Of a DNA stretch of 64,000 nucleotides, positions 12,768 to 53,514 are shown one piece after another. How positions within the stretch are numbered: position 1 is the stretch's first letter; each line of letters begins with the position of its first letter. The stretch covers positions 5,704,001 to 5,768,000 of the forward strand of contig CM075989.1 in NCBI GenBank assembly GCA_038087875.1, read 5' to 3'. The notes under the pieces are model-generated. The model saw nothing but the letters and a program-made list of their open reading frames with translations, made no database searches and was not told the DNA's origin. This DNA comes from Malacoraja senta (Eukaryota). The translations under genes were made by a program, and so were the position numbers.

Positions 12768-15700
12768 CAGTGGAAAGACAATACATGATTACAATTGAGC
12801 CATCCACAGTGTACAGATACATGATAAAGGGAATAAAGTGATCACCATCTAGCGCAGCGTAAAGATAGTCTGAGTGTCTCCATTGAGGTAGATGGTATCT
12901 CGGGAATACTCTCTGGTTGTCGGTAGGATGGTTCAGTTGCCTGATAACAGTTGGGAAGAAACTGTCCCCGAATCTGGATTTATTTAATCCAAGGTACGTG
13001 CCTGCGCAGAAACAACCCTAATTATCTTTTATTTATTAATTTCTCGGAATCTGGGCATTGCTGGCGAAACCATTTATTGATCAAGAGACACACAAAGTGC
13101 TGGAGTAACTCAGCAGGTCAGGCAGCATCTCAGGACAAAAAATGGATAGGTGACGTTTCAGGTCTTCAGACTGAAAGTCTCCCCCCAACTACAATCAGTC
13201 TGAAGAAGGATCCCGAGCCGAAACGTCACATATTATTTCTCTGCAGAGAAGCTGCCTGACCCGCTGAGTTACTCCAGCATTTTGTATCTATCTTTGGTAC
13301 CAACCAGCATCTGCAGTTCTTTGTTGCTGCTCATTTTTATTGTTTTCTTTTGTCTCCTTTTCATCACTCGCCTCCGACCACCCATCTGCTGATCAACCCC
13401 CCCCCCTCCCCCATCTCACCTGTATCCACCTATCAATTGCTAGGCTTTGTCCTTCTCGCTTACCCCCTGCCCCCCCCCCCCCCCCCCACCACTTTTTCTG
13501 CTTTCTCTCCCCAACTACAATCAGTCTGAAGAAGAGTCCCGACCCGAAACATTGCCTTTCAATCCCCTTCACTGATGCTGCCTGAGCTGCTGAATTGGCT
13601 GAAATGGTCCTTCATTCATCGGGGTATCAGGAATTGACAGCATTTGCCAGTAATGTTAATAGAAAGATGGGAATGCTGCTGAGTTATTCCTGTAGCTCCA
13701 GATTCCATCAAACCTGAAGTAAGAAACATGTGGGTTTTTTTTCATGTTATTTATTTTAGTTGTTTATCTTAGACTTTTGCTCTAAGAAAATGTGTGCACT
13801 GACTGGTTGGCATTTCTAATTTCGTTGTACATGTTTACATGTTATAATGACAATAAAGTATTCATTCATTCATTCATGGAAGCATTGCAAAATAGGCGCT
13901 GGAGTAGGCCATTCAGCCCTTCGAGCCAGCACTGCCATTCAATATCATCATGGCTGTTCATCTAAAATCACCACCCCGTTCCTACTTTTTCCCCATATCC
14001 CTTGATGCCTTTGGCCCTAAGAGTTAAATCTAACTCTCTCTTGTAAGGTCCATATGCGCAATTTTGCCTGGGCATTTCCTCCCCAGATGCTGCCTGACCT
14101 AGTGGGTTCTTTTTAGATTTTAGAGATTTTAAAGATACAGCGTGGAAACAGGCCCTTTGGCCCATTGAGTCCATGCTGACCTGTGATCTCCGTACACAAA
14201 CACTATCCTACACACACTAGGGACAATTTACAAACTTTACCGAAGCCAATTAACCTGCAAGCCTGCACGTCTTTGGAGTGCGGGAGGAAACCGGAGCACC
14301 CGAGGAAAACCCACGCAGTCAAGGGGAGAATGTTCCAACACTGTACAGATGGCAACGGCAGTCAGGACCAAACACCGGTTCCTGGCGCGGTAAGGCAGCA
14401 ACTCCACCGCTGCGCCACCGTGCCGCCCTGTTATCTGTTTCATTTTCTCTGATGAAAATTCTAGCTCAACATCAGGTGAATGCATAATGCAAATTCAATA
14501 TGATTATGAAATTATTAATGATGAAATTAATTCAGTGGGAGACAGAACATTTCTCTCTCACGTCAGAGGAATTGTTTACCAAAGGAGCCTCCATCTGCTT
14601 AGAGAACGTTACATAATGTAAAATTTCACTCCTAATTGAGGTTTGGGGGAGGGAATATCGAAGACCGATTGATGTTGATACACAGGGGCTTGCAATCACA
14701 CTCAGCAAGGGTGAGGTCCAGGTCGGGCTGTCATGACGCTTGGCTCTTTCACAATTTACTTTTGTTTAGTTTAGTTTAGTTTAGAGATCCAGCACTGAAA
14801 CAGGCCCTTCGGCCCACGCCGCCCAGCGATCCCCGCACACTAACGCTATCCTACACACACTCGGGACAATTTACATTTACACCAAGCCATTGAACCGACA
14901 AACTTGTTCGTCTTTGGAGTGTGGGAGGAAACCGGAGCTCCCGGAGAAGGCTCCCACGATCACGGGGTGAACCTACAAACTCCGTACAGGCAGCACCCAT
15001 CGTCAGGATCGATCCCGGGTCTCTGGCGCTGTAAGGCAGCAACTCTACCGCTGCGCCACCATTTTCCACAATCTACTACTTTTTATGTAATAGTTTGAAA
15101 ATCTGCCGTCTTGAAATTGAATGATTTTGAAAGCTTTTCAGAGCGGAATGTCAATTATATTAATCGTACACTATCATGAAACTAATGGCTGATATCCTCA
15201 ACTTCAATAAAAATTATAGACTGCAATCAGCGTTGAAAATATTGAGTGAATATAAAATCTGTTCCGTGATCAAAGGAACATATTTAGCCCAATAAAGTCA
15301 TCAATACCTTAAAGATTCTTTTGAAATTCGTCACTGGAAATAACAGATTCAAGAAAATGAAGGAGTATCAGAGATAACAAGTGGCCTTTAGGGCAATTTC
15401 AGTTCTATGTGAAGGAAGGAACTGCAAATGCTGGTTTAAACTAAGGATAGACACAAAGACTTGGAGTAACTCAGCCGGTCAGACAGCGTCTCTGGAGAAA
15501 AGGAATGGGTGACTTTTTGGGTCGAAACACGAAAATATCTTCTATTTTGAGTTGTTATGTACTGGATTGCAGGTCTAACTTTCAAATGCAGATGGTAAGA
15601 GCAAAAAAGTGAATCGTTCTTGTAATATCACAATCTCAGTCAGTCAACCTGGTCAGCTTGGCGGAGTTGGGCCAAAGGGCCTATTTCTGTGCTGTATAGC

Positions 15701-19188: not shown

Positions 19189-19767
19189 TAAGACATTAGG
19201 CAACCCGTTATTAGTTTAGTTTAGTTTAGTTTAGTTTAGTTTAGAGATACAGCGTGGAAACAGGCCCTGTGGCCCACTGAGTCCGCGCCAACCAGTCATC
19301 CTCGTACACTAGCACTATCCTACATGCTAGGGACAACATACAATCGGTACCGAAGCCAATTAACCTACAAACCTGTCGTCTTTGGTGTGTGGGAGGAAAC
19401 CGGAGCACCTGGGTCTCTGGCGCTGTAAGGCAGCAACTCTAACGTTGCACCACCGTGCCACCCTACAATGTTATGTCATGTTAGTGTTGACTCCGCGAAA
19501 GAACTTCTTGATACGTCCATCATCCCAATCCTTTCCCCAGAGCCCTATAACATATTCCCCTTCAACATTTATCCAATTACCTTTTAGAGGTTGTTGAGGA
19601 TTATTCAGAAGTTATAAAATGATATGGAAGTAGTGACTATTTATTCAATAAACGAATCAGACTTCAGAATATCTAATCTAATGTAGCCAGAAGGAATGGG
19701 TGAACAAGGGTCACGACCCGAAATGTCACCGATTCCTTCTCTTCAGAGATGCTGCCTCTCCCACTGA

Positions 19768-21234
19768 TGTACCCACTTTCAACCTCTCACTTCTGAGATC
19801 TCAGGTTCCCACCTGCTTCAAAAGGGCATCAATCATACCAGTGCCCAAGAAGAGCAAGGTGACGTGCCTCAATGATTATCGACCTGTGGCACTAACGCCT
19901 GTGGTGATGAAGTGCTTTGAGAGGTTGATCATGGTGCAACTCAACTCCTACCTCGACAAAAACCTGGACCCACTGCAGTTCGCTTACCGCCACAACAGAT
20001 CAACGGTGGATGCGATCTCGCTGCACTCCGCTCTGGACCACTTGGACAACAAAAACTCATATGTCAGGCTGTTATTCATCGATTACAGCTCGGCATTTAA
20101 CACACTCATCCCCTCCAAGCTGGTTACCAAACTCGCAGAACTGGGTCTCTGCGCATCCCTCTGCAATTGGATCCTCGACTTCCTCACTCTCAGACCACAG
20201 TCTGTTCGTATTGGTGGAAATGTGTCAGACTCGATAACAATCAGCACGGGAGCACCTCAAGGCTGCGTGCTCAGCCCCCTGCTGTACTCACTCTATACTC
20301 ATGACTGCGTAGCTGGTCATAGTGCGAACTCCATCATCAAGTTCGCTGACGACACCACTGTTGTGGGATGTATCACTGATGGGGATGAGTCAGAGTACAG
20401 AAGAGAGATCGAGCAACTGTCCATATGGTGCCAGCACAATAACCTGGCCCTCAACACCAGCAAAACCAAGGAACTGATTGTGGACTTTGGAAGGAGTAGG
20501 ATGGGGACCCACTGTCCCGTCTATATCAACGGGTCGATGGTTGAAAGGGTCAAGAGCTTCAAATTCCTGGGCGTGCACATCTCTGAAGATCTTTCCTGGT
20601 CCGAGAACACTGATGCTACTATTAAGAAAGCACATCAGCGCCTCTACTTCCTGAGAAGATTACGGAGAGTCGGTTTGTCAAGGAGAACTCTCTCTAACTT
20701 CTACAGGTGCACAGTAGAGAGCATGCTGACCGGTTGCATCGTGGCTTGGTTCGGCAACTTGAGCGCCCTGGAGAGGAAAAGACTACAAAGAGTAGTAAAC
20801 ACTGCCCAGTCCATCATTGGCTCTGACCTCCCTTCCATCGAGGGGATCTATCACAGTCACTGCCTCAAAAAGGCTGGCAGCATCATCAAGGACCCACACC
20901 ATCCTGGCCACGCACTCATCTCCCTGCTACCTTCAGGTAGAAGGTACAAGAGCCTGAAGACTGCAACGACCAGGTTCAGGAATAGCTACTTCCCCACAGC
21001 CATCAGGCTATTAAACTTGGCTCGGACAAAACTATGAACATTAATAGCCCATTATCTGTTATTTGCACTTTATCAGTTTATTTATTCATGTGTGTATATA
21101 TTTATATAATGGTATATGGACACACTGATCTGTTTTGTAGTCAATGCCTACTATGTTCTGTTGTGCTGAAGCAAAGCAAGAATTTCATTGTCCTATCAGG
21201 GACACATGACAATAAACTCTCTTGAACTTGAACT
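19768..21234 (+). mobile_element. Rex1/Babar LINE, 5'-truncated, with open RT frame
   Basis: ORF 19700..21037 contains [47 protein letters not shown]; 3' end caataaactctcttgaacttgaac. Inserted into a Penelope-tail repeat. Confidence 0.92.
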
Positions 21235-30834: not shown

Positions 30835-31034
30835 NNNNNNNNNNNNNNNNNNNNNNNNNNNNNNNNNNNNNNNNNNNNNNNNNNNNNNNNNNNNNNNNNN
30901 NNNNNNNNNNNNNNNNNNNNNNNNNNNNNNNNNNNNNNNNNNNNNNNNNNNNNNNNNNNNNNNNNNNNNNNNNNNNNNNNNNNNNNNNNNNNNNNNNNNN
31001 NNNNNNNNNNNNNNNNNNNNNNNNNNNNNNNNNN
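30835..31034. other. Assembly gap (200 N)
   Basis: Run of N. Confidence 1.
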
Positions 31035-35984: not shown

Positions 35985-38045
35985 AAGGAGCTAGGCGGAG
36001 GAGAGTATCAGTAGACGGGGATTGGTTGGTTCTGTGGCCGAGGAAGGAACGGAGGGCTTTAAGACCCTCCTGGTGGGGGATGAAGGTGTAGAGTGACTGG
36101 ACACCCATGGTGAAGATGAGGGAATGGGGGCCTACGCGCCAACTCTCAGACACCTCCTCCTACTTATCCTTGGACCATGACCCCACAGACGAGCACCAGG
36201 CCACTATCTCCAGCACTATCACTGACTTCATCACTTCCGGCTCCCTGCCCTCACAAGCCTCCAACCTCATCGTTCCCCAGCCCCGCATGGCCAGATTTTA
36301 CCTTCTACCCAAAATCCACAAACCTGACTGTCCTGGCAAATCCATTGTTTCTGCCTGTTCGTGTCCTACCGAACTTATTTCCACATACCTTGACTCCATC
36401 CTATCCCCCTGGTTAACTCCTTCCCTACCTATGTTCAAGACACCTCACACGCTCTTCGTCTACTCCAGGACTTCCGTTTTCTAGGCCCCCATTCCATCAT
36501 CTTCACCATGGATGTCCAGTCACTCTACACCTCCATCCCCCACTAGGAGAGTCTTAAAGTCCTCCGTTTCTTCCTCGACCGCAGAACCAACCAATCCCCG
36601 TCTACTGATACTCTCCTCTGCCTAGCGGAGCTGGTCCTTACCCTTAACAACTTTTCATTTGACTCCTCCCATTTCCTCCAAATACAAGGCGCAGCTATGG
36701 GCACGCGCATGGGCCCTAGCTATGCCTGCCTCTTTGTAGGGTACATCGAACAATCTTTGTTCGAGGCGTACCAGGGCCCCATCCCCAAACTCTACCTCAA
36801 CTACATTGACGACTGCATTGGTGCTACCTCCTGCACACACACACAACTCACTGACTTCATCCATTTCACCACTAACTTCCATCCGGCACTCAAATACACC
36901 TCGACCAGTTCCGACATTTCCCTACCATTTCTAGACCTCACTATATCCATCGGAGATGATAGACCACTGACCGACATCCACTATAAACCCACTGACTCCC
37001 ATGGCTATCTGGACTACACTTCTTCCCACCCTGCTTCCTGTAAGGACTCCATCCCCTACACCCAATTCCTCCATCTATGCCGCATCTGCACCCAGGATGA
37101 AGTGTTCCACACCAGGGCATCGGAGATGTCCTCATTCTTAACGGAACGGGTGTTCCCCTCTTTTACTATAGATGAGGCTCTCATCAGGGTCTCTTCTATA
37201 CCCCGTAACTCTGCTCTCACACCCCATCCCCCCACTCTTAACAAGGGCAGAGTCCCCCTTGTCCTCACCTTCCACACTACCAGCCGTCACATACAACAAA
37301 TAATCCTCTGGCATTTTCGCCACCTCCAACGTGATCCCACCACTTGCCACATCTTCCCATCTCCTTCCCTGTCTGCTCTCCGCAGAGCCCGCTCCCTCCG
37401 TAACTCTCTGGTCAATTCGTCCCTTCCCACCCAAACCACCCCCTCTCCTGGCACTTTCCCTTGCAACCGCAGGAAATGCTACACTTGTCGCTTTACCTCC
37501 CCCCTTGACTCCATTCAAGGACCCAAGCAGTCTTTCCAGGTGCGGCAGAGGTTTTCCTGCACCTCCTCCAACCTCATCTATTGCATCCGCTGCTCTAGGT
37601 GTCAGCTGCTCTACATCGGTGGGACCAAGCTTAGGCTAGCCGATCGCTTCGCCCAACACCTACGCTCGGTTCGCATTAACCTACCTGATCTCCCGGTGGC
37701 TCAGCACTTCAACTTCCCCCTCCCATTCCGAATCCGACCTTTCTGTCCTGGGCCTCCTCCATGGCGAGAGTGAGGACCACCGTATATTGGAGGAGCAGCA
37801 CCTCAAATTTCGCTTGGGCAGTTTGCACCCCAGCGGTATGAACATTGACTTCTCCAATTTCAGGTAGTCCCTGCTTTCTCCTCCCCTTCTCAGCTCTCCC
37901 TCGGCCCACTGTCTCTTCCTTTCTTCTTCCCGCCCCCCCCACCCCCCCACCCACATCAGTCTGAAGAAGGGTCTCGACCTGAAACGTCACCTATTTCCTT
38001 CGCTCCGTAGATGCTGCCTCACCCGCTGAGTTTCTCCAGCACTAT
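35985..38045 (+). mobile_element. Penelope-like retroelement (RT plus GIY-YIG) with inverted 5' segment and hammerhead-bearing 3' tail
   Basis: FYLLPKIHK, MDVQSLYTSIP, GAAMGTRMGPSYACLF, YIDD, LPFLDL, CNRRKCYTC linker, NLIYCIRCSRCQLLYIG...RFAQH. 35985-36133 is the reverse complement of about 36483-36630. Confidence 0.93.
37957..37992 (+). ncRNA. Minimal hammerhead ribozyme motif at the PLE 3' end (representative copy)
   Basis: CTGAAGA-A-GGGTC-TC-GACCT-GAAAC-GTC: CUGANGA and GAAA boxes, stem II and a GUC cleavage triplet. PLEs are known to carry minimal hammerheads. Confidence 0.7.
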
Positions 38046-38729: not shown

Positions 38730-41563
38730 TGTAGGAAAGAACTGCAGATACTGGTTTAAATTGAAGGTAGACACAAAATGCTGGAGGAACTCAGCGGGAC
38801 AGGCAGCATCTCTGGAGAGAAGGAATGGGTGACGTTTTTGGTCGAGACCCTTCTTCAGACTGATGTCAGGGGAGTAGGCGGTACAGAGATAGAATGTAGT
38901 CGGAGTCAGTAAGACTGGTGGGAGAACTGGGAAGGGGGAGGGGATGGAAAGAGAGGAAAGCAAGGGCTACTTGAAGTTAGATAAGTCAATGCTAATACCG
39001 CTGGGGTGTAAGCTACCCAAGCAAAGTATGAGGTGCTGTTCCTCCAATTTGCACTGGGATTCTGACAATGGAGGAGGCCCAGAACAGAACGGTCAGATTG
39101 CGAATGGGAGAGGGAGTTAAAGTACAAAGCAACTGGGAGATCAGGTAAGTTTAGGCGGACTGAGCGGAGGTGTTCAGCGAAACGATCACCGAGCCTGCGC
39201 TTGGTCTAGCCGATTTTCAGCAATCGAAACCTGGAGCAGCGGATATTGTAGATAAGGTTGGAGGAGGTGCAAGTGGATCTCTGCCTCGCCTGAAAAGACT
39301 GTCAGGGTTCTTGGACGGAGTCGAGGGGGGAGGTAAAGGTGTTGCATCTCCTGCGGTTGCAGGGGAAAGTACCGGGAGAGGGGATGGTTTGGGTGAGAAG
39401 GGACGAGTTGACCAGGGAGTTGCGGAGGGCACGGTCTTTACGAAAAGCAGAAAGGGGTGGAGATGGGAAGGTGTGGCCAGTAGTGGGACCCGTTGGAGGT
39501 GGTGAAAATGTCGGAGGATTACAATACAATACAATACGGTTTTATTCGTCACATTGCACATAAAGTGCAAGTGAAATGAATTTTCCAGCAGCGGTACGAT
39601 GATAAAGAACACACAATACACAATAAAAATTTAACACAAACATCCACCACAGCACACAATTTGGCCAGTCCTCCTCAATTTTCCCCCGTGGTCGGGACCT
39701 CAACCCTCCGCAGTCGTCGCTGCGGGCGTCCAGATGTGCAGACAGGTAAAAGTCCAGGTAAGTCCAGAGTCGGCTCTTCCCCACCGGAGACCGCGGCTTT
39801 AGGTTGGTGTAGGCCGCAGGCCAGCGGTCGAAGTTTTAAAGTTCCCGCCGCGCCGCAGCGAGAAGCACCGCAGACCGCAGGACCAGCAGTCGAAGCTCCC
39901 CTCCAGGGGTGATGGTAAGTCCACGCCAGGCCCGCGGTAGAAGTAGGCCGCGGGCCGGCAGTGGTGGCTTCTTCTTCTCCCGGGTTCCCCACGAGGGATC
40001 CCGGGCTGCGGACGCCGCGCCAGCTGGAGCTCTGCAGACCGCGACTTCAGGCTGCAGGCTGCCGCGGGCCAGCGAAACGGAGCGCTCCACTCTGGCGAGC
40101 CCCAGTGAGGGCTCGCCCGCTCCACGGCGAGAGTCCACGCTGCACCCGCCGCTGAAGCCCAGGCGCGTCTCCAGGAAAGGCCGCACCGATCCTTGCTGTT
40201 AGGCCACGGGGGAGGCGACCTGGAAAAAGTCGCCTCTCTGTTGAGGAGGCGACCGAAACGGTTTCCCCCTCACCCCCCCACACGTAACACACAAAGAAAC
40301 ATAGAAACATAGAAAATAGGTGCAGGAGTAGGCCATACGGCCCTTTGAGCCTGCACCGCCATTCAATATGATCATGGCTGATCATCCAACTCAGTATCCT
40401 GTACCTGCCTTCTCTCCATACCCCCTGATACCTTTAGCCACAAGGGCCACATCTAATTCCCTCTTAAATATAGCCAATGAACTGGCCTCAACTACCTTCT
40501 GTGGCAGAGAATTCCAGAGATTCACCACTCTCTGTGTGAAAAATGTTTTTCTCATCTCGGTCCTAAAAGATTTCCCCCTTATCCTTAAACTGTGACCCCT
40601 TGTTCTGGACTTCCCCAACAATCTTCCTGCATCTAGCCTGTCCAACCCCTTAAGAATTTTGTAAGTTTCTATAAGATCCCCCCTCAATCTTCTAAATTCT
40701 AGCGAGCACAAGCCAAGTCTATCCAGTCTTTCTTCATATGAAAGTCCTGACATCCCAGGAATCAGTCTGGTACATCCCAGGAATCAGTCTGGTTAAAAAC
40801 ATTAAAAACATACTTTAAAACATACAATTTTTTTTTTTTATGTAGAAAAAAACGGACACGCTACTGACAGGGTGCCGGCTTGCAGCGCCCCCACCGACCC
40901 AATTATGTGCTGTATGCGACGGCTGATGGGGTGGAAGGTGACGAAAAGGGGGACCCTGTCTTTGTTACGAATGGGGGGAGGGGGAGCAAGAACGGAGCTG
41001 CGGGGAATCGAGGAGACCCTAGTGAGAGCCTCATCTATAATGGAAGAAGGGAACCCCTGTTCCCTAAAGAATTAGGACATCTCTGATGACCTGGAATGGA
41101 AAACCTCATCCTGGGCGCAGATGCGGCGTAGACGGAGGAATTGGGTGTAGGGGATAGAGTCTTTACAGGAAGCAGGGTGGGGAGAAGAGTGGTCTAGATA
41201 GCTATGGGAGTCAGTGGGTTTGTAATAGATGTCAGTCAATAGTCTGTCTCCAGCGATGGAGATGGTGAGATCTAGAAACGGTAGGGAGATGTCGGAGATG
41301 GTCCAAGTGAATTTGAGTGCAGGATGGAAATTAGTCGTGAAGTTGATGAAGTCAGTGAGTTCTGCATGGGTGCAGGAGGTAGCACCGATGCAGTCGTCAA
41401 TGTAGCAGAGGTAGAGTTCGGGGATAGGGCCAGTGTACGCCTGGAACAGGGATTGTTTGACGTATCCTACAAAGAGGCAGGCATAACAGGGGCCCATGCG
41501 AGTGCCCATAGTTACGCCTTCGATTTGGAGGAAGTGGGAGAAGTCGAAGGAGAAATTGTTGAC
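38730..41563 (-). mobile_element. Penelope-like element interrupted by nested insertions
   Basis: ORF 41072..41620 (QIEGVTMGTRMGP, YIDD, LPFLDL). The sequence breaks at ggaggatta (about 39521) and resumes at attatgtgctg (about 40902); hammerhead tail at 38831-38858. Confidence 0.9.
39522..40901 (-). mobile_element. GC-rich non-autonomous retroelement with (attgt)n tail, itself interrupted by a CR1 3' fragment (40297-40792)
   Basis: Minus-strand 3' end catttcacttgcactttatgtgcaatgtgacgaataaa...(tattg)n; CR1 ORF 40391..40753 inside. Confidence 0.7.
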
Positions 41564-42386: not shown

Positions 42387-43406
42387 CTACAGAGAAGCAG
42401 AAATATTGAACTTATCCACATACTTTTGTTTATACACATTAAAACAAGACCTTTATAGAAATCTTCAGGTCACCTTTAAATATGCAACAGAGCCACATAT
42501 ACATTTTAGTGTATATATATATATATACATTTTAGTGTGTGTATATATATAAATAAATTGAAAGAGACAACTGTGATTAGGGGACCAGGGGACTATGATT
42601 AGGGGATTAATGGTGTAAGGATGAAACAAAGCGTGATAAAGTCTTACGAAGATCTGAATCAAAATTCAAGATTGGCCAGAAATTCATTCTGGTTCACAGC
42701 ACTATATAGATGCTTCATTGCATTGGCTTGTGCCTCAGCAATCAATTCGACCGACTTCAGTGGAATTAATTTTAGAGCCACACAGATGTACAGCAGAGAA
42801 ATAGGCTCTTTAGCTCACTATGTCCATGCTGCCCATTTTACCTGTCACACAAATCCCTTGTATCTGCATTAGATCTGTAGCCTTTAGATCTTGGCATTTC
42901 AAATATTTGTCTGGATGCCTCTTACATGTCGTTAGAGTATTTGCCTCCATGACCTGCTGCCTCCACCATCTTCAGACAGCACATTCCAGACTCTAACAAC
43001 ATTCTACTGAAAATTAATCCTCCTCAGATCCATCCCAAGTTCCCTCCTCTCATGATACACCGATGACCTCTTGCTATAGCTACATTGAGTAAAAGGCTTT
43101 TACGATCTACCCTAACTAGCGCCATGATTTTATATACCTCAATCTGCTCACCACTTAGTATCCTCCTCTTCAGGGAAACAAATCCAGCTCATCTAATTTC
43201 TTCTTATAACTAAAATTCAGTCAATATCCTCGACACTCTCTTTAGCACAATTGCATTCTTCCTAGAATGTGGTGAACAGAACTGCATATGTACTCCAGGC
43301 ATAACTGGAACAATGTTTTATTAAATTGTAATATAACAGTCCTATATTTTCTTCTATGCCACAGCCAAGGCAAGCATCCCATGTGCACCACCTTATACAC
43401 CTGTGC

Positions 43407-44977
43407 TGTCAATTTGAAGAAATGGCGATTGACCAGTTAACTGATCAGTTAACGAGGGACATTTTAGTGACTGGCATGAGCGACCAAAAGCTCAGATCAG
43501 AACTTCTGCGAAAGCCAGATTTGACCCTAGAGGAAGCAGTTCATGCTTGCAGAACAGCAGAATTTATCGACCCTCTAGACAGTCAGCAAGCTACCAAAAC
43601 CAAACCCTCTGTAGACAGACTCCAGACACGCTATGTGATCCAAAACCATCTTTAATCAGCACTTAAACTTTAACAGCATAAAGGATGGTTAGATGTCAGA
43701 ACATGCCAACTGCTACTCGAACTGAGTATTGCCAGAAGCAAGTGTTAATATAAACGTTATCGTGGGGTGGGGTTAGTAATGCTAACTATATGTGATTGGT
43801 TAACATGCATAATCAATCTACATCCTTCCCCCTAAAGACTAAGTGTAAAAGGGCATCCATGCCATGGAGTTAAACATACTCGCCATATCTATCTGGCGGT
43901 CTACTGACATGGCCCGAGCGCGTGCGGACCAAACACCTGTCGTCAGAGCCCCACACCGGCTGTCATTTGCCATGACAGACAGGGTTCAATCCGAGCTAAA
44001 GAACTTGGTCTCCCTGGGCATGATCGAATCAATCAGCGACCCACCGACTGGGTCTCAACTATGGTTGCCACCTTCAAGAAGGATAAAAACAAAATCTGTC
44101 TGTGCATCAACCCGAAAGACCTGAACACTGCCATTAAGCGCCCCCACCATCCCACTTCTGACACCATGTAGACAGACTCCAGACACGCTATGTGATCCAA
44201 AATCATCTTTAATCAGCACTTAAACTTTAACAGCATAAAGGATGGTTAGATGTCAGAACATGCCAACTGTTGCTCGAACTGAGTAGTGCCAGAAGCAAGT
44301 GACAACTGGACATTCCCGTCTGGGCACCATTGTTAACCTGCTGACGAACCACGATCCTACCTTGTGGACTGTGAGGGAGCGGTATACCGGAGAAGTCGAC
44401 AACACCTGCTTGTTGTGCGGGAACCCAGTCCACCACCAGCCAGTCCTTATGCTCCACCGCTCCAGTTCCAGCCGCCCGCTGCCATGTCCCCTACCGGTCC
44501 CCGCATGCCTTGCACCCCTCCACATCCCGCGGTCGAGACTAACCACGGGGCCTCCCCTCCTGCATGTTTCCCCTTTCGGTCACCACAAGCCTCTCCCGCG
44601 CCATTCTCGCCTCCGGGTTCTCCGCCTCATCTTTCAGGAGAGGGAGGACAGGGTTTGGTCCGCACGCGCTCGGGCCGTGTCAGTAGACCGCCAGATAGAT
44701 ATGGCGAGTATGTTTAACTCCATGGCATGAATGCCCTTTTACACTTAGTCTTTAGGGGGAAGGATGTAGATTGATTATGCATGTTAACCAATCACATTTA
44801 GTTAGCATCAATAACCCCACCCCACTATAACGTTTATATTAACACTTGCTTCTGGCACTACTCAGTTCGAGCAGCAGTTGACATGTTCTGACATCTAACC
44901 ATCCTTTATGCTGTTAAAGTTTAAGTGCTGATTAAAGATGATTTTGGATCACATAGCGTGTCTGGAGTCTGTCTACA
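43407..44977. mobile_element. Rearranged Gypsy LTR-retrotransposon fragments (copy A)
   Basis: gag(+) RDILVTGMSDQKLRSELLRKPDLTLEEA; LTR(-) 43610-43822 with PPT and pol end; RT(+) DWVSTMV..KK...CINPKDLNTAIKR; PBS and partial LTR(-) 44149-44301; pol end(+) RTRSGRVSRPPDRY; PPT; LTR(+) 44765-44977 TGTAGA..TCTACA. Confidence 0.88.
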
Positions 44978-45875
44978 TCAGGTAACTGATCCATCCTCTC
45001 ACCAGCTAGAGTGCGGTTCTGACCTCCCATCTACCTCATGGGAGACATTTGAACTATCTTTAATTGGACTTTATCAGATCTTATCTTGCACAAAATAATA
45101 TACCCTTTATACATAATTGTGTACATACTTGAATACATAATTGTGGTGGTAGTAAGGTTATAGCAGTACCGGGAAGTGTGTTACATCATTAGAGATTGTG
45201 TGCATCGGACTGAGATAATAGACCAAGAAGCAATTTGCTACTTAAATGGATATTAAAGATACATAGCGCAATTTAGAGAAGACTAGAAAAGTTCTCTTAT
45301 TGCCTTGAACAAACCGTGAAAGCAGATCAGCAATCCATTCATTTCATCGTTTGAAGAAATTTTGCTATTAACCAAAAATGCCTCCTGAATTTGAATGTCA
45401 TTCATCATATTTCAAGGTAATTTATTGTAAATTCAACTCTGAAAGCATCATGACAATGTTAACAATTCAAGACCTTCCTACACTGTTGTCATTATCCAAG
45501 ATCTATAGAAATAAAATGGTCCCAAGTTTCTTCTTTAATTTACAGATTTTGGTTCAATTTTGAACTCTAAATAATGTGTAAAATTAACATCTGATTGTTG
45601 TAATATAAGCATTGGAGTTTTGCGGAGATTGAGGAGAAAAAAGAGGAGAGATGAAAGAACTTGAAGCCTAAAAGTTTGATAAAAGTATTAAAACTTAGCT
45701 GCTCTTCAACAAAAAATATTCAATTTAAAGTTTTTTTGATTCAATTCAATGCAAAAAATTTGTGAAGTAATTGTAGAAAAGTAATTTTGATAACTCTTAC
45801 TCTATAACTAACTACTAGACTAAGTGAGACCCGTAGGGTCCCTCTCACAAGGGGAGGCCTGGTTCCCCAACGCAA

Positions 45876-46003
45876 CCCCTAATCACAATTGTCTCTTTCA
45901 ATTTATATATATACACACACTAAAATGTATATATATATATATATATATATACATTTTAGTGTGTGTATATATATAAATTGAAAGAGACAATTGTGATTAG
46001 GGG
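45876..46003. repeat. Perfect 128-bp palindrome centred on (TA)n at the duplication junction
   Basis: cccctaatcacaattgtctctttcaatttatatatatacacacactaaaatgta...(ta)n...tacattttagtgtgtgtatatatataaattgaaagagacaattgtgattagggg. Confidence 0.95.
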
Positions 46004-46828
46004 ACCAGGGGACTATGATTAGGGGATTAATGGTGTAAGGATGAAACAAAAGCGTGATAAAGTCTTACGAAGATCTGAATCAAAATTCAAGATTGGCCAG
46101 AAATACATTCTGGTTCACAGCACTATATAGATGCTTCATTGCATTGGCTTGTGCCTCAGCAATCAATTCGACCGACTTCAGTGGAATTAATTTCAGAGCC
46201 ACACAGATGTACAGCAGAGAAATAGGCTCTTTAGCTCACTATGTCCATGCTGCCCATTTTACCTGTCACACAAATCCCTTGTATCTGCATTAGATCTGTA
46301 GCCTTTAGATCTTGGCATTTCAAATATTTGTCTGGATGCCTCTTACATGTCGTTAGAGTATTTGCCTCCATGACCTGCTGCCTCCACCATCTTCAGACAG
46401 CACATTCCAGACTCTAACAACATTCTACTGAAAATTAATCCTCCTCAGATCCATCCCAAGTTCCCTCCTCTCATGATACACCGATGACCTCTTGCTATAG
46501 CTACATTGAGTAAAAGGCTTTTACGATCTACCCTAACTAGCGCCATGATTTTATATACCTCAATCTGCTCACCACTTAGTATCCTCCACTTCAGGGAAAC
46601 AAATCCAGCTCATCTAATTTCTTCTTATAACTAAAATTCAGTCAATATCCTCGACACTCTCTTTAGCACAATTGCATTCTTCCTAGAATGTGGTGAACAG
46701 AACTGCATATGTACTCCAGGCATAACTGGACCAATGTTTTATTAAATTGTAATATAACAGTCTTATATTTTTCTTCTATGCCACAGCCAAGGCAAGCATC
46801 CCATGTGCACCACCTTATACACCTGTGC

Positions 46829-48400
46829 TGTCAATTTGAAGAAATGGCGATTGACCAGTTAACTGATCAGTTAACGAGGGACATTTTAGTGACTGGCATG
46901 AGCGACCAAAAGCTCAGATCAGAACTTCTGCGAAAGCCAGATTTGACCCTAGAGGAAGCAGTTCATGCTTGCAGAACAGCAGAATTTATCGACCCTCTAG
47001 ACAGTCAGCAAGCTACCGAAACCAAACCCTCTGTAGACAGACTCCAGACACGCTATGTGATCCAAAACCATCTTTAATCAGCACTTAAACTTTAACAGCA
47101 TAAAGGATGGTTAGATGTCAGAACATGCCAACTGTTACTCGAACTGAGTATTGCCAGAAGCAAGTGTTAATAAAACGTTATAGTGGGGTGGGGTTAGTAA
47201 TGCTAACTATATGTGATTGGTTAACATGCATAATCAATCTACATCCTTCCCCCTAAAGACTAAGTGTAAAAGGGCATCCATGCCATGGAGTTAAACATAC
47301 TCGCCATATCTATCTGGCGGTCTACTGACATGGCCCGAGCGCGCGTGCGGACCAAACACCTGTCGCCAGAGCCCCACACCCGGCTGTCATTTGCCATGAC
47401 AGACAGGGTTCAATCCGAGCTAAAGAACTTGGTCTCCCTGGCATGATCGAATCAATCAGCGACCCCACCGACTGGGTCTCAACTATGGTTGCCACCTTCA
47501 AGAAGGATAAAAACAAAATCTGTCTGTGCATCAACCCGAAGACCTGAACACCGCCATTAAGCGCCCCCACCATCCCACTTCTGACACCATGTAGACAGAC
47601 TCCAGACACGCTATGTGATCCAAAATCATCTTTAATCAGCACTTAAACTTTAACAGCATAAAGGATGGTTAGATGTCAGAACATGCCAACTGTTGCTTGA
47701 ACTGAGTAGTGCCAGAAGCAAGTGACAACTGGACATTCCCGTCTGGGCACCATTGTTAACCTGCTGACGAACCACGATCCTACCTTGTGGACTGTGAGGG
47801 AGCGGTTATACCGGAGAAGTCGACAACACCTGCTTGTTGTGCGGGAACCCCGTCCACCACCAGCCGGTCCTTATGCTCCACCGCTCCAGTTCCAGCCGCC
47901 CGCGGCCATGTCCCCTACCGGTCCCCACATGCCTTGCACCCCTCCACGTCCCGCGGTCGTGACTAACCACGGGGCCTCCCCTCCTGCATGTTTCCCCTTT
48001 CGGTCACCACAAGCCTCTCCCGCGCCATTCTCGCCTCCGGGTTCTCCGCCTCATCTTTCAGGAGAGGGAGGACAGGGTTTGGTCTGCACGCGCTCGGGCC
48101 GTGTCAGTAGACCGCCAGATAGATATGGCGAGTATGTTTAACTCCATGGCATGGATGCCCTTTTACACTTAGTCTTTAGGGGAAGGATGTAGATTGATTA
48201 TGCATCTTAACCAATCACATTTAGTTAGCATCACTAACCCCACCCCACGATAACGTTTATATTAACACTTGCTTCTGGCACTACTCAGTTCGAGCAGCAG
48301 TTGGCATGTTCTGACATCTAACCATCCTTTATGCTGTTAAAGTTTAAGTGCTGATTAAAGATGATTTTGGATCACATAACGTGTCTGGAGTCTGTCTACA
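46829..48400. mobile_element. Rearranged Gypsy fragments (copy B)
   Basis: Same layout as copy A; 213-bp LTRs at 47032-47244 (-) and 48188-48400 (+). Confidence 0.88.
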
Positions 48401-49230
48401 TCAGATCCATCCTCTCACCAGCTAGAGTGCGGTTCTGACCTCCCATCTACCTCATGGGAGACATTTGAACTATCTTTAATTGGACTTTATCAGATCTTAT
48501 CTTGCACAAAATAATATACCCTTTATACATAATTGTGTACATACTTGAATACATAATTGTGGTGGTAGTAAGGTTATAGCAGTACCGGGAAGTGTGTTAC
48601 ATCATTAGAGATTGTGTGCATCGGACTGAGATAATAGACCAAGAAGCAATTTGCTACTTAAATGGATATTAAAGATACATAGCGCAATTTAGAGAAGACT
48701 AGAAAAGTTCTCTTATTGCCTTGAACAAACCGTGAAAGCAGATCAGCAATCCATTCATTTCATCGTTTGAAGAAATTTTGCTATTAACCAAAAATGCCTC
48801 CTGAATTTGAATGTCATTCATCATATTTCAAGGTAATTTATTGTAAATTCAACTCTGAAAGCATCATGACAATGTTAACAATACAAGACCTTCCTACACT
48901 GTTGTCATTATCCAAGATCTATAGAAATAAAATGGTCCAAGTTTCTTCTTTAATTTACAGATTTTGGTTCAATTTTGAACTCTAAATAATGTGTAAAATT
49001 AACATCTGATTGTTGTAATATAAGCATTGAAATTTTGCAGAGATTGAGGAGAAAAAAGAGGAGAGATGAAAGAACTTGAAGCCTAAAAGTTTGATAAAGT
49101 ATTTAAAGCTTAGCTGCTCTTCAACAAAAAATATTCAATTTAAAGTTTTTTTGATTCAATTCAATGCAAAAAATTTGTGAAGTAATTGTAGAAAAAGTAA
49201 TTTTGATAACTCTTACTCTATAACTAACTA

Positions 49231-50110
49231 CTAGACTAAGTGAGACCCGTAGGGTCCCTCTCACAAGGGGAGGCCTGGATCCCCAACGCAACCCGTTCCA
49301 CATCGCAATATTCCACCACTCACCCATTCCCCCTACGCAACCTGTTCCCCCAACTCAATATTACACCACTCACGCATAGCCCCCACTGCGCAAGCGCGGC
49401 TCATCCCCCAGCATTCCCTCCCCCTCTTCTTCACCCTCCTTCTTCTTTCCTCTCTTTTCCTCCCTCACCTTTCCCCTACCCTCAGTCACTCCCTCCCTCC
49501 CTCCATAACTCCTCTCCCCTCCCTACCCCCTCCTATCCCTCTATCCCCCACCTGCCCCAGTCCTCCCCTACTATTCCTCTTCACCTCCCCACTGCCCTCC
49601 TCTCCCTTTAATCCCCACTCCCTAACTCCCCCACTCCTCTCCCTCAATCCCCCACACTCCCTCCTCACCTCCCCAGGACGGCGATGAAGTTGTACTTAAT
49701 GCAGGGGCTGTCGGGAGGGGGGGGGGGGGTGGGGAGCGTCCTGGAGCCTGGGAAGAGCTTCAGGCAGGGGCTGTGGGTGGGGGGGGGTGGTGAGCGTCCT
49801 GTGGCCGGGTGCGGACTTCAGGCGGGGCTGTCGGGGGGGGTGGGGGGGGGGGGGGGATGGCGAGCATCTTGGGGCCAGGGAGGGGAGGGGGGCGGGCTTG
49901 GGGCGGGGAACCCCAGCCCAGGGCCCAAGGGGGCAGAAATGAAAATAGAAGGGAACCTACCCGTGGCGCCGTCGGTTGGCCATTGTGGACAAAATTCTGG
50001 ATAGGCCCCAACTGCACAGGTGTGACTGAGGACCCGTCGGGTGCCCTTTGCAACGCTAGGAAAGACGCGCACGGGAACTCTCTCCCAACTGCGCATTGCG
50101 TGGGTGGGGG
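49231..50110 (-). mobile_element. Putative non-autonomous Helitron-like element (3' end duplicated at 45815-45878)
   Basis: Minus strand ends GGGACCCTACGGGTCTC (hairpin)-ACTTAGT-CTAG followed by T; low-complexity C/G-rich interior; 5' TC end not identified. Confidence 0.55.
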
Positions 50111-50252
50111 CACATTCTAGACTCTAACCACATTCTACCGAAAAATAATCCTCCTCAGATCCATCCCAAGTTCCCTCCTCTCATGATACACCGATGACCT
50201 CTTGCTATCGACATCTCTACATTGAGTAAAATACTTTTACGATCTACCCTAA

Positions 50253-52299
50253 AAGGGCTGTCTCACTGTGCGAGTTGACCCACGAGTGACCCCGAGTTTA
50301 AAACAAATTTAACTCGTGGTAATCACGTACAATTAACGTAGCGGGAACGTTGGAACTCGTGGACGCAACTTAGCGACTCTTGGCGCTAACGGGGAGGTAC
50401 ACGTGAAACTTGTTAACTCTTGCAAAAGTTCAAACATGTTTGTACTTTTCCACGAGTAAAAATGTACTCTTGAGGTTAAAATTTGAAACATTTTAAACTC
50501 GTTGTAAGATCGTAGTGGCCCGTGCGTTTACCTTTGTGACTCGTGATTCTACCGTGGGAACTCTTTTTAGAAACAATAATCAGGGACAGAAATATCAGTT
50601 ACTTAGACTTTTAAAAGACAAATTCTGCTTAACAAAGTAAAAGTTATTGATAAGGTGACAGAGTGGGTTGAAAAAGTAAAAATTGCTTGAAGTTTATATA
50701 TAGATTTTGTGTTATTTGGGACTGAGCTCACAACCTTAAGACAAACCAGTATTGAGGAACAGCGTGGAGAACATTTTATGACACTTCATGGCAGCCTAAT
50801 CTGAGGTTCCGTTTCAGCAATCTAATGACAGTGAGGAAGGAGCTGTCCCTGAATCAGGTAGTACATGTATATGAGCGTTTGTATTATCTGCTCACGGGGT
50901 GAAAGGAGAGGAAGGAATGGTACGTTGGCTGCTTCCTGAAGCAGGTCGAAGTGTAGATTGAGTTAATAGGGGGAAAGCTGGCCTGTGTAATAGACTGCAC
51001 TACATTTGCAAGTCTCTGTAATATATACTGCGCTCTTGGGCAAAGCTGCTCCCAAAACAGGCATTGATGCATCACAATATGATGCTTTGTACGATGTAGA
51101 CTGTGGAAGCTGGTAGGCTGCCCAGGCAATCAGACATGACTCCGGTGACTCTCATGTGCACTCTGAACTCGTCAGCTGGACAGAGGGAAAAAAAGGTGAG
51201 TAAAAAAAATGTGACTTCAACATCAGCACGTGACCTGGGTCAATCTTGGGCGTTTCACCTCATTGCTGGTGAATCTTTTTGATAAGAAGCTTGCTAGAGA
51301 TGGCTCCCAGAAAAGTTCGACGAAAGGGAAGAGCAGAGCCTTACATAAAACCTGCCATGGAGGCTATAGTCATACAGGAGGAGGAGGAGGAGGAGGAGGC
51401 AACAGGAGATTCAACAGGAGATTCAACAGGAGATGCCACAGGGGAGAAGTCAACTGCCTGTGGGCTCCCAGGTAGCTGTGTGTGAAACAGCCTCAGACGT
51501 GGATGCCCCATTCAAGGGAAGATGGAATAAAGTTTAAACCATTTAACTTCGACAGGCAGCAAGAGGGAGACCTTGTAGAGTGGTTTCAGGCTAATGAAAT
51601 CCTCTATGACAAATCTAAAGAAGATTATCGTAATAGGGACAAGAAGCGTGCTCTGTATGAGGAAAAGGCAGCGGAGTATCCTGGGTGCACATGTGAGTAC
51701 ATTATGATATATTAGGGTATCAGCAGGTAAACCATTTTATTTTATCCAATATTGAAAAATGTTCAGTGTTATTGCTGTAAAAGTTCTATATTTGACATCA
51801 AATTCAACTTCTCTAGTAGTTCTGTGCCCTGCAGCTGTAAAGTTATACGTTGCAGACACATTTCACAGGTTGTGTGTTTGAAGTTTGAATCCTGTCTCCA
51901 ATAGCCCATAAAATTAAATATGCGTGAAGACAGGCAATTAACACATGTGATGCTTGTCTTTAAAAGGCTGTTTGTTTTGAACTTTGAATGATGTCTTCAA
52001 GAAAGACAATATTAAATAGCTATTAAAACAGGGCAACAATTTAACAGGACTTAATGGCTTTCAGGTACATTTTTCAACACGTCGATATACATTGTTGCCT
52101 CAAGATTAACGGGAGAGGAACTTGGTACACTCAGGAGACGAACTTGGAACATCGCAGAAATGAGAAGTAAACGGCAAACTTAGACATACCCGTGGGAACT
52201 CGGTTAAACTCTGGATCATAAACTTGTAGTCTCGTACGCAACCACGAGTCTTTCACTCGGGGTCACTCGTGGGTCAACTCGCACAGTGAGACAGACCTT
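50253..52299 (+). mobile_element. PIF/Harbinger DNA transposon (internally deleted) carrying a Myb/SANT-MADF gene remnant
   Basis: 45-bp TIRs 50253-50297 / 52255-52299 (1 mismatch); flanks TAA/TTA; empty site ccctaactagcg in copies A and B. Confidence 0.9.
51300..51692 (+). pseudogene. Harbinger Myb/MADF-like DNA-binding protein, first coding exon (frameshifted)
   Basis: MAPRKVRRK, an acidic run, then QQEGDLVEWFQANEILYDKSKEDYRNRDKKRALYEEKA (MADF-like) ending at a gtgagt donor at 51693. Confidence 0.7.
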
Positions 52300-53314
52300 T
52301 TACTAGCGCCATGATTTTATACACCTCAATCAGCTCACCACTCAGTATCCTCCACTTCAGCGAAACAAATCCAGGTCATCTAATTTCTTCTTACAACCAA
52401 AATTCAGTCATATGCTCCTCGACACTCTCTTTAGCACAATTACATTCTTCCTAGAATGTGGTGAGCAGAACTGCATATGTACTCCAGGCATAACTGGACC
52501 AATGTTTCATTAAATTGTAACATAACAGTCCTATATTTTCTTCTATGCCACGGCCAAGGCGAGCATCCCATGTGCACCACCTTATACACCTGTGCTGTCA
52601 GTTTGGATCTGTGGACCTGTACTCCAAGGTCTCTCTGTTCATTGGCATTCCATAGGGCCCTACCATTTACAGCGTCGGTTCCAGCTGTTATCAGGTAACT
52701 GATCCATCCTCTCCGCAGCAAGAGTGCGGTTAGAAACATAGAAACATAGAAAATAGGTGCAGGAGGAGGCCATTGGGCCCTTCGGCCCATTCATTGTGAT
52801 CATGGCTGATCGTCCCCAATCAATAACTCGTGCCTGCCTTCTCCCCCGTATCCCTTGATTCCACTAGCCCCTAGAGCTCTATCTAACTCTCTCTTAAATC
52901 CACCCAGTGATTTGGCCTCCACAAATTCACAACTCTGGGTGAAAACGTTTTTTCTCACCTCAGTCTTAAATGGCCTCCCCTTTATTCTAAGACTGTGGCC
53001 CCTGGTTCTGGACTCGCCCAACATTGGGAACATTTTGCCTGCATCTAGCTAGTCCAGTTCTTTTATAATTGTACATGTTTCTATAAGATCCCCCCTCATC
53101 CTTCTAAACTCCAGTGAATACAAGCCTAGTCATTTCAATCTTTCTGACCTCCCATCTACCTCATGGGAGAAGTTTGAATTATCTTTAATCGGACTTTCTC
53201 AGATCTTATCTTGCACTAAATAATATACCTTTTATACATAATTGTGTACATACTTGTGTACATACTTGAATACATAATTGTGGTGGTAGTAAGGTTATAG
53301 CAGTACCGGGAAGT

Positions 53315-53514
53315 NNNNNNNNNNNNNNNNNNNNNNNNNNNNNNNNNNNNNNNNNNNNNNNNNNNNNNNNNNNNNNNNNNNNNNNNNNNNNNNNNNNNNN
53401 NNNNNNNNNNNNNNNNNNNNNNNNNNNNNNNNNNNNNNNNNNNNNNNNNNNNNNNNNNNNNNNNNNNNNNNNNNNNNNNNNNNNNNNNNNNNNNNNNNNN
53501 NNNNNNNNNNNNNN
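53315..53514. other. Assembly gap (200 N)
   Basis: Run of N. Confidence 1.

Follow-up and report, generated by a model that had tools for sequence, protein, structure and literature searches.

How did some 1.6 kb of DNA, made up of five pieces of one retrotransposon, come to stand where about 90 bases of host DNA have gone from the genome of Malacoraja senta? The patch lies in a repeat-rich window of 64,000 nucleotides (contig CM075989.1 of assembly GCA_038087875.1, positions 5,704,001 to 5,768,000), whose 42.5-53.3 kb region is a tandem triplication consisting of copy A (42512-45878), copy B (45936-49294), which is 98.3% alike to copy A, and copy C (50110-53314), which is 89-94% alike and has insertions of its own. 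The patch is present in copy A (43410-44977) and, in its entirety, in copy B (46832-48400); it is absent from copy C, which retains at 52601-52690 the host DNA missing from A and B (89-90 bp, or 89 nt when a shared A is assigned to the LTR). The two patches are 1.2% apart, with 19 substitutions (12 transitions and 7 transversions) and 8 indel events over 1565 aligned nt, and all six junctions are identical between them.

The empty site in copy C represents the ancestral state, because its reading frame stays open across the site of the left junction (J1), because the right-hand repeat crosses the right-junction point unbroken, as it also does at 12925-12954, and because a single-copy contig of the public run X1 departs from the patch at 43416. 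The left flank (43115-43411, minus strand), which ends at J1, is an old LINE-like coding remnant common to all three copies, which we take to be CR1, and a Pfam search of its host frame returned no match. The right flank (44978-45177) is the repeat that runs on unbroken in copy C. A sequence-only reading of the window, made before this analysis, had placed about 90 bp of unrelated host DNA at this site in copy C; the segment is indeed there, but it continues the repeats on both sides and so is not unrelated. The second patch, in copy B, went unmentioned in that reading. The same reading held that the left junction formed with loss of host DNA, which is supported, and that the patch has no TSD, and a search for one of 4-6 nt, both for the whole patch and for an insertion into gag, found none. 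The event is dated between the split of copy C (4.4-5.4% divergence) and the A/B duplication (0.6-1.2%), and the patch is dead DNA that was later duplicated along with its 3.4-kb surroundings.

The element is assigned, through its relatives and its terminal motifs, to a high-copy family of Ty3/Gypsy LTR retrotransposons. The patch pieces map to gag and RT of relative P0001, which carries PR, RT and RH, and to the integrase C-terminus of relatives P0003-P0005, where P0003 and P0004 carry rve followed by the matched C-terminus, which agrees with the Ty3/Gypsy order gag, PR, RT, RH, IN; the four element peptides of the patch, searched by themselves, gave no match in Pfam. Named protein relatives come from the little skate and show 42-56% identity. 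The LTR is 213 bp long with TG...CA ends, and it is accompanied by a tRNA PBS and a PPT. All 18 nt of the PBS (44149-44166) match a published tRNA-Leu(CAA) probe, which differs from the patch at nt 19 (PMC7997516), in agreement with the tRNA named in the sequence-only reading, and its first 12 nt match the Steamer PBS at 12/12 positions (PMC8905726). As the Gypsy C-clade (Steamer/SURL-like) is described in the latter source, it resembles the element in its 12-nt Leu-tRNA PBS abutting a short TG...CA LTR and in its PPT, a likeness of motifs and not of a tree, and the LTR here is 213 bp vs 177-187 in that clade. In metagenome contigs, the LTR-PBS pattern had 0 matches, and a search with P0001 returned two distant loci from 69 candidates, both without an LTR pair, PBS or DNA match.

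The order and strands of the five pieces, gag(+), [LTR-PPT-pol end](-), RT(+), [PBS-partial LTR](-) and IN end-PPT-LTR(+), are as first described and were borne out by mapping to P0001 and P0003-P0005. Piece 1 (43410-43609, plus strand) is a gag fragment corresponding to about residues 192-240 of P0001, with the overlap zone of J1 at 43407-43416. Piece 2, on the minus strand, comprises a complete 213-bp LTR (43610-43822), whose exact U5 (CA) end lies on gag at J2, and the PPT with the last ~34 pol codons (43823-43934), which end at J3 (43933-43934). Piece 3 (43933-44154, plus strand) is an RT fragment covering residues 519-592 of P0001, with one frameshift near 44039 in copy A and two different 1-nt losses in copy B. 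Piece 4, again on the minus strand, begins with the 18-nt PBS, of which 44149-44154 is the microhomology of J4, and continues with LTR positions 79-213 (44167-44301), the first 78 nt being absent, as far as J5 (44301/44302). Piece 5, on the plus strand, consists of the C-terminal end of integrase and the PPT (44302-44764; stop at 44717, PPT at 44754-44764), with a frameshift near 44336 common to both copies, and a second complete 213-bp LTR (44765-44977), whose exact U5 (CA) end lies on host DNA at J6. The inverted repeat of about 325 bp noted earlier is confirmed as 43610-43934 / 44653-44977 (325 nt, 97%).

All four inner joints switch strand; the plus-strand pieces gag, RT and IN keep the order of the element, as do the two minus-strand pieces. 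Followed from J6 along the minus strand, the pieces alternate in sense, beginning and ending with minus, and the two of plus sense each stop where a template naturally ends. Two candidate features were rejected. A 15-bp imperfect repeat in gag (43425-43439) is not a junction product, given that relative P0007 carries the same repeat, and piece 4 is probably not an exact minus-strand strong-stop DNA, as it starts at LTR position 79, whereas TATA-like words at 62 and 71 and an Inr-like word at 98, which we take to be promoter motifs, suggest a later start.

The sequence-only reading had also proposed microhomology at three junctions (TGTCA, CCTGTC and ATCCC), with differing outcomes. At J1 (host/gag), family copies read [C/S]-[Q/R]-F, and the homology, certain for 2 nt, may reach 9/10 depending on the source copy, leaving the full TGTCA word unproven. 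At J3 (pol end/RT), family contigs depart at 43934 and begin at 43933, so that the exact overlap is just 2 nt, or 8/9 with one offset base; CCTGTC is thus common to both sides with a 1-nt offset only. At J4 (RT/PBS), normal RT copies match to 44154 and then read P-M-K-T-V, so the microhomology, which involves PBS nt 13-18, is at least 6 nt and confirms ATCCC; a match of 6 nt or more has a chance of 0.0022. The remaining joints offer little or no homology. J2 (gag/LTR) is an exact CA end with no evident microhomology, and the closest relative, P0006 (72%), runs on K-S-I-N-L past the joint, which, in this weak, protein-level comparison, does not allow any homology to the end of the LTR; at J5 (LTR/IN) the window reads Q-V vs Q-T in three relatives, so exact homology is probably 0-1 nt; and J6 (LTR/host) is an exact CA end with 1-2 nt in common.

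Three of the six junctions therefore fall on downstream cDNA termini: a U5 end joined to gag (J2), a U5 end joined to host DNA (J6) and a PBS end joined to RT (J4). U3 ends take part in none of the six, and none of the pieces can be identified with certainty as a 5' LTR, because cDNAs are described as often carrying a PBS tail on the downstream end. For an assumed element length of 5 kb, the crude chance that random breaks would hit these termini is 7e-6 for the two U5 ends and 0.014 for the PBS end, making random breakage of a resident element a very unlikely source of the pieces, and the earlier proposal that they derive from reverse-transcription intermediates stands. The placing of the PBS-to-RT switch at the stop of plus-strand synthesis fits the 18-nt boundary, but that boundary is also likely to be the end of the genomic PBS; tRNA read-through beyond nt 18 is absent, nt 19 being unlike the probe. 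A pure chain of polymerase switches would not explain J2, which counts against it in having no evident microhomology.

The patch probably records an insertion that went wrong, in a manner for which laboratory viruses and yeast already offer examples. The specific account preferred here, which is tentative and given not quite an even chance, is a single event in which at least two intermediates were joined through their U5 and PBS ends, one U5 end was joined cleanly to the chromosome, and host end-joining with a deletion closed the opposite side. The event would have begun with at least two cDNA intermediates that had completed downstream ends (U5, or U5 plus PBS) and upstream U3 ends that went unused. 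One U5 end would have been joined exactly to the chromosome at J6, most likely by integrase acting at one end only. At J4, the single-stranded 18-nt PBS tail would have annealed by 6 nt to RT and been extended, giving the RT/PBS inversion, with alt-EJ, Rad52 PBS annealing or a faulty plus-strand transfer as candidate routes. The second U5 end may have been joined, bluntly or by integrase as in auto-integration, to gag DNA of a partner molecule at J2, and J3 and J5, where homology is little or imperfect, could come from template switching or from end-joining. Host end-joining would then have attached the remaining free end to the left flank by short homology at J1, deleting 89-90 bp.

Directly visible in this scheme are the five pieces, their alternating strands, the three joints at downstream termini, the unjoined U3 ends and the loss of host DNA. 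The patch has the features of one-ended integration, namely an exact LTR end at the host, a truncated other end, extra segments in either orientation and a host deletion; it lacks the 4-6 nt TSD and the two LTR ends on host DNA of a canonical two-ended insertion, which may have been lost later. The missing TSD does not exclude integrase, because a normal insertion followed by deletions likewise removes it. Neither the integrase-free origin claimed in the sequence-only reading nor a break as the first step is established, because the published one-ended route gives a clean end, extra pieces and a host deletion (PMC5041404), and because J6 and J2 are exact CA ends with 0-2 nt of homology, such as integrase leaves.

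One-ended aberrant integration is described for ASLV with one bad end and for HIV-1 with a weak or partly blocked integrase (PMC5041404). In that source, one end is normal, several element segments from either strand are appended to the free 3' end by short homology, and the flank is deleted. The patch shares the normal end, the truncated and extended other end and a host deletion in place of a TSD, and may share the short homology at the aberrant host joint, but it is a natural germline Gypsy insertion and has, inside the insert, a PBS end and another exact U5 end. Precedents for J4 come from sources describing that about 50% of Tf1 cDNAs retain a single-stranded PBS tail, which directs insertion with annealing by Rad52 (PMC11042837), that alt-EJ works on PBS homology in Drosophila (bioRxiv 10.1101/2022.09.25.509424), and that faulty plus-strand transfer occurs in HIV, with tRNA read-through past nt 18 as its diagnostic mark (PMC12657518). 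All three resemble J4 in that the PBS copy is joined at its 3' end through short homology; in the patch, however, the PBS end pairs with RT of the opposite strand, giving an inversion, and not with host DNA or a downstream site, and the read-through of HIV mis-transfer is missing. Auto-integration inversion circles of Ty1 and Arabidopsis SISYPHUS (PMC7197481) resemble J2 in having an exact LTR end within reversed internal sequence, but the patch has no reciprocal U3 joint and its PBS is opposite to gag. Auto-integration of one molecule, raised in the sequence-only reading as a source of the pieces, was rejected as the whole story, since it explains the gag/LTR joint and none of the others, and two U5 ends need two molecules.

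The alternative that survives best is a stepwise origin, which is a serious contender although on balance unlikely. An element X would have inserted with a TSD, a mini-element Y of ~0.77 kb would have inserted reversed into the gag of X, and two deletions would have followed, one taking the 5' end of X with 89-90 bp of host DNA (J1) and the other taking the U3 end of Y with most of X (J5). Y would have the structure LTR-PBS-inverted RT-pol end-PPT-LTR and would itself be a product of faulty plus-strand transfer. In this scheme both CA ends are textbook integrase joints, an ordinary cause is available for each junction, and the element order of the three plus-strand pieces and of the two minus-strand pieces is accommodated; nesting is plausible at the very high copy number of the family (depth 10^2-10^5 vs 30-40 for the flanks), and a copy deleted from the PBS to the pol end seems to be present in run X6. 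However, four events must fit between the split of copy C (4.4-5.4%) and the A/B duplication (0.6-1.2%), and both deletions must take precisely the U3 ends and TSDs, overshooting by just 78 and 89 nt. The LTRs of Y also have no robust common allele vs X and show 3 fixed differences in 135 nt, and the LTR of X, supposedly the older, has fewer derived changes.

The LTR alleles on which these last points turn lean, not significantly, towards a separate source for piece 2. Pieces 2 and 5 have 6 differences fixed in A and B over 325 nt, and at no fewer than 4 of the 6 it is piece 2 that holds the derived base relative to family contigs (best 40 of 126 rows); the split of derived alleles between them, 4:2 to 5:1, gives p 0.69 and 0.22. 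Pieces 4 and 5 differ at 1/136 positions, and their descent as sisters was rejected, as the alleles common to them are ancestral and not derived. Allele arguments are weak because two LTR sites show crossed alleles between the copies. At 43713, 43761 and 44826 and their counterparts in B, piece 2 of A goes with piece 5 of B, and piece 2 of B with piece 5 of A or with piece 4, which may reflect gene conversion, recurrent change or polishing error.

Rather improbable is the model of the sequence-only reading, in which end-joining, with no part played by integrase, filled a break in the chromosome with free fragments of cDNA. The absence of a TSD, the host loss and the multiple pieces fit it, as does microhomology at J1, J3 and J4, which is firm at J4, imperfect at J1 and J3, and little or none at J2, J5 and J6. 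Captures of Ty1 in yeast (PMC11372161) and of MuERV-L/MaLR in mouse zygotes (PMC4516963) are similarly described as having multiple pieces, microhomology (1-5 nt in the zygotes) and no TSD; in yeast, insertions of 2-4 pieces occur, 3' LTR cDNA ends of Ty1 are the favoured captured piece, and captures can retain cDNA ends. Moreover, because the PBS follows the LTR directly, the expected free end of a cDNA is blunt at CA. Against break capture, both CA ends are untrimmed, all five pieces come from one family with no filler from host or other foreign DNA, the strands alternate strictly (four inner joints that are all inversions would be a 1 in 16 outcome if random), and the patch, unlike those systems, has no induced break as an anchor; mouse captures are also described as truncated at both ends (PMC4516963), whereas here the right end is exact.

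Contigs of public runs were compared over 43300-44180 at 85% likeness in 4/24 runs; J5 and J6 lie outside that stretch. None of the matches listed (32 of 1597 contig pieces) spans a patch junction, which is no evidence either way, because contigs break at repeats and the matches listed are a small part of the total. At J3 and J4, family contigs of these runs diverge from the stretch as expected of normal copies, and within the window the layout is confined to the tandem copies A and B. Of the five joints listed, four have their end at 44149 or 44151. By-eye translation of the letters ahead of the PBS gives K-D-E-I-R-L-C-I-N-P in X23 and G-I-I-E-A-V-S-E-P-T in X1, faintly suggesting RT(+)/PBS(-) joints at two other RT sites; X6 has the pol end joined to the PBS end, and one further joint in X1 has no assigned partner. 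The sides of these extra joints are 20-30 nt long at 85% likeness, and the joints are flagged as unreliable by the tool, and come from a stretch that reveals only joints near the PBS. Separately, X6 contigs suggest a short element deleted from PBS to pol end (43919/44149) and an LTR-to-gag deletion ending near the gag position of J1 (43412/43613). On the flank at 43300-43402, contigs of X23 and X24, runs that are possibly related to the assembly source and were not treated as independent, have exactly the difference counts of B-type (1 insertion and 2 substitutions) and of C-type (5 substitutions), and no A-type flank is among those listed. B-type depth there is 1.5 to 2.4 times C-type, and A/B copy number may differ between individuals.

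Two further explanations are very improbable. One has a resident element shattered, or copied by template switching, at the genomic level alone, without replication intermediates. It would suit a rearrangement-prone locus with a tandem triplication and a fold-back palindrome at the A/B joint, but it gives no reason why J2 lies at an exact U5 end or why J4 lies at that of the PBS. An assembly artefact, more improbable still, could be argued from the lack of a spanning read or contig among the 32 of 1597 pieces listed, the many 1-nt indels between A and B, the absence of an A-type flank in X23 and X24 and the crossed alleles, but a chimeric read is excluded because the six junctions recur in two copies that are 19 substitutions and 8 indel events apart, and the X23 and X24 flank contigs reproduce the B-type and C-type difference counts exactly.

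The component processes of a botched insertion are known from HIV and ASLV, Ty1, Tf1 and mouse zygotes; what is new is their natural germline form, with three termini, beside its own empty site, and no natural genomic case of this layout was found in open-access literature text. As a lone dead locus the patch has little importance, other than as a clean fossil of steps for which most descriptions so far come from yeast, edited zygotes and retroviruses perturbed by drugs or mutations. A broader and doubtful conjecture is that in this Gypsy lineage the single-stranded tRNA-Leu PBS tail mis-anneals repeatedly to words that encode conserved RT motifs (E-P-T, I-N-P, H-P-M) and that inversion-bearing, U5-only, host-deleting insertions form a recurrent and countable class; if this is true, they would naturally record the frequency of failed plus-strand transfer in a vertebrate germline, and LTR elements would be a source of small structural change without TSDs. 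If PBS-end inversions and U5-only insertions do recur genome-wide, failed plus-strand transfer and one-ended integration would become measurable in a natural germline, in copies that escape annotators requiring two LTRs and a TSD.

Several other features of the window were observed. An Rfam search returned 0 matches in it, and 200-N assembly gaps lie at 30835-31034 and 53315-53514, the second of which truncates copy C. Copy C contains a 2-kb insertion (50253-52302), presumably Harbinger-like, which is bounded by terminal inverted repeats and has at 51566-51691 a MADF (Myb/SANT-like) domain (Pfam E 1.8e-5), and a second private insertion (52732-53141), which opens with AGAAACAT repeats that recur in further repeats of the window. 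The joint of the A/B duplication holds a perfect 128-bp palindrome (45876-46003), centred on an (AT)n run, in which the end of A is followed by 57 nt that copy the start of B in inverted orientation, a fold-back templated insertion. A 451-aa open RT frame at 19682-21037 (RVT_1 E 2.6e-32) is a LINE-type remnant, and an inverted repeat of 659 nt (36646-37304 / 40902-41560, 83%) overlaps a 408-aa frame with a weak GIY-YIG match (E 0.0027), which we take to be Penelope-like.
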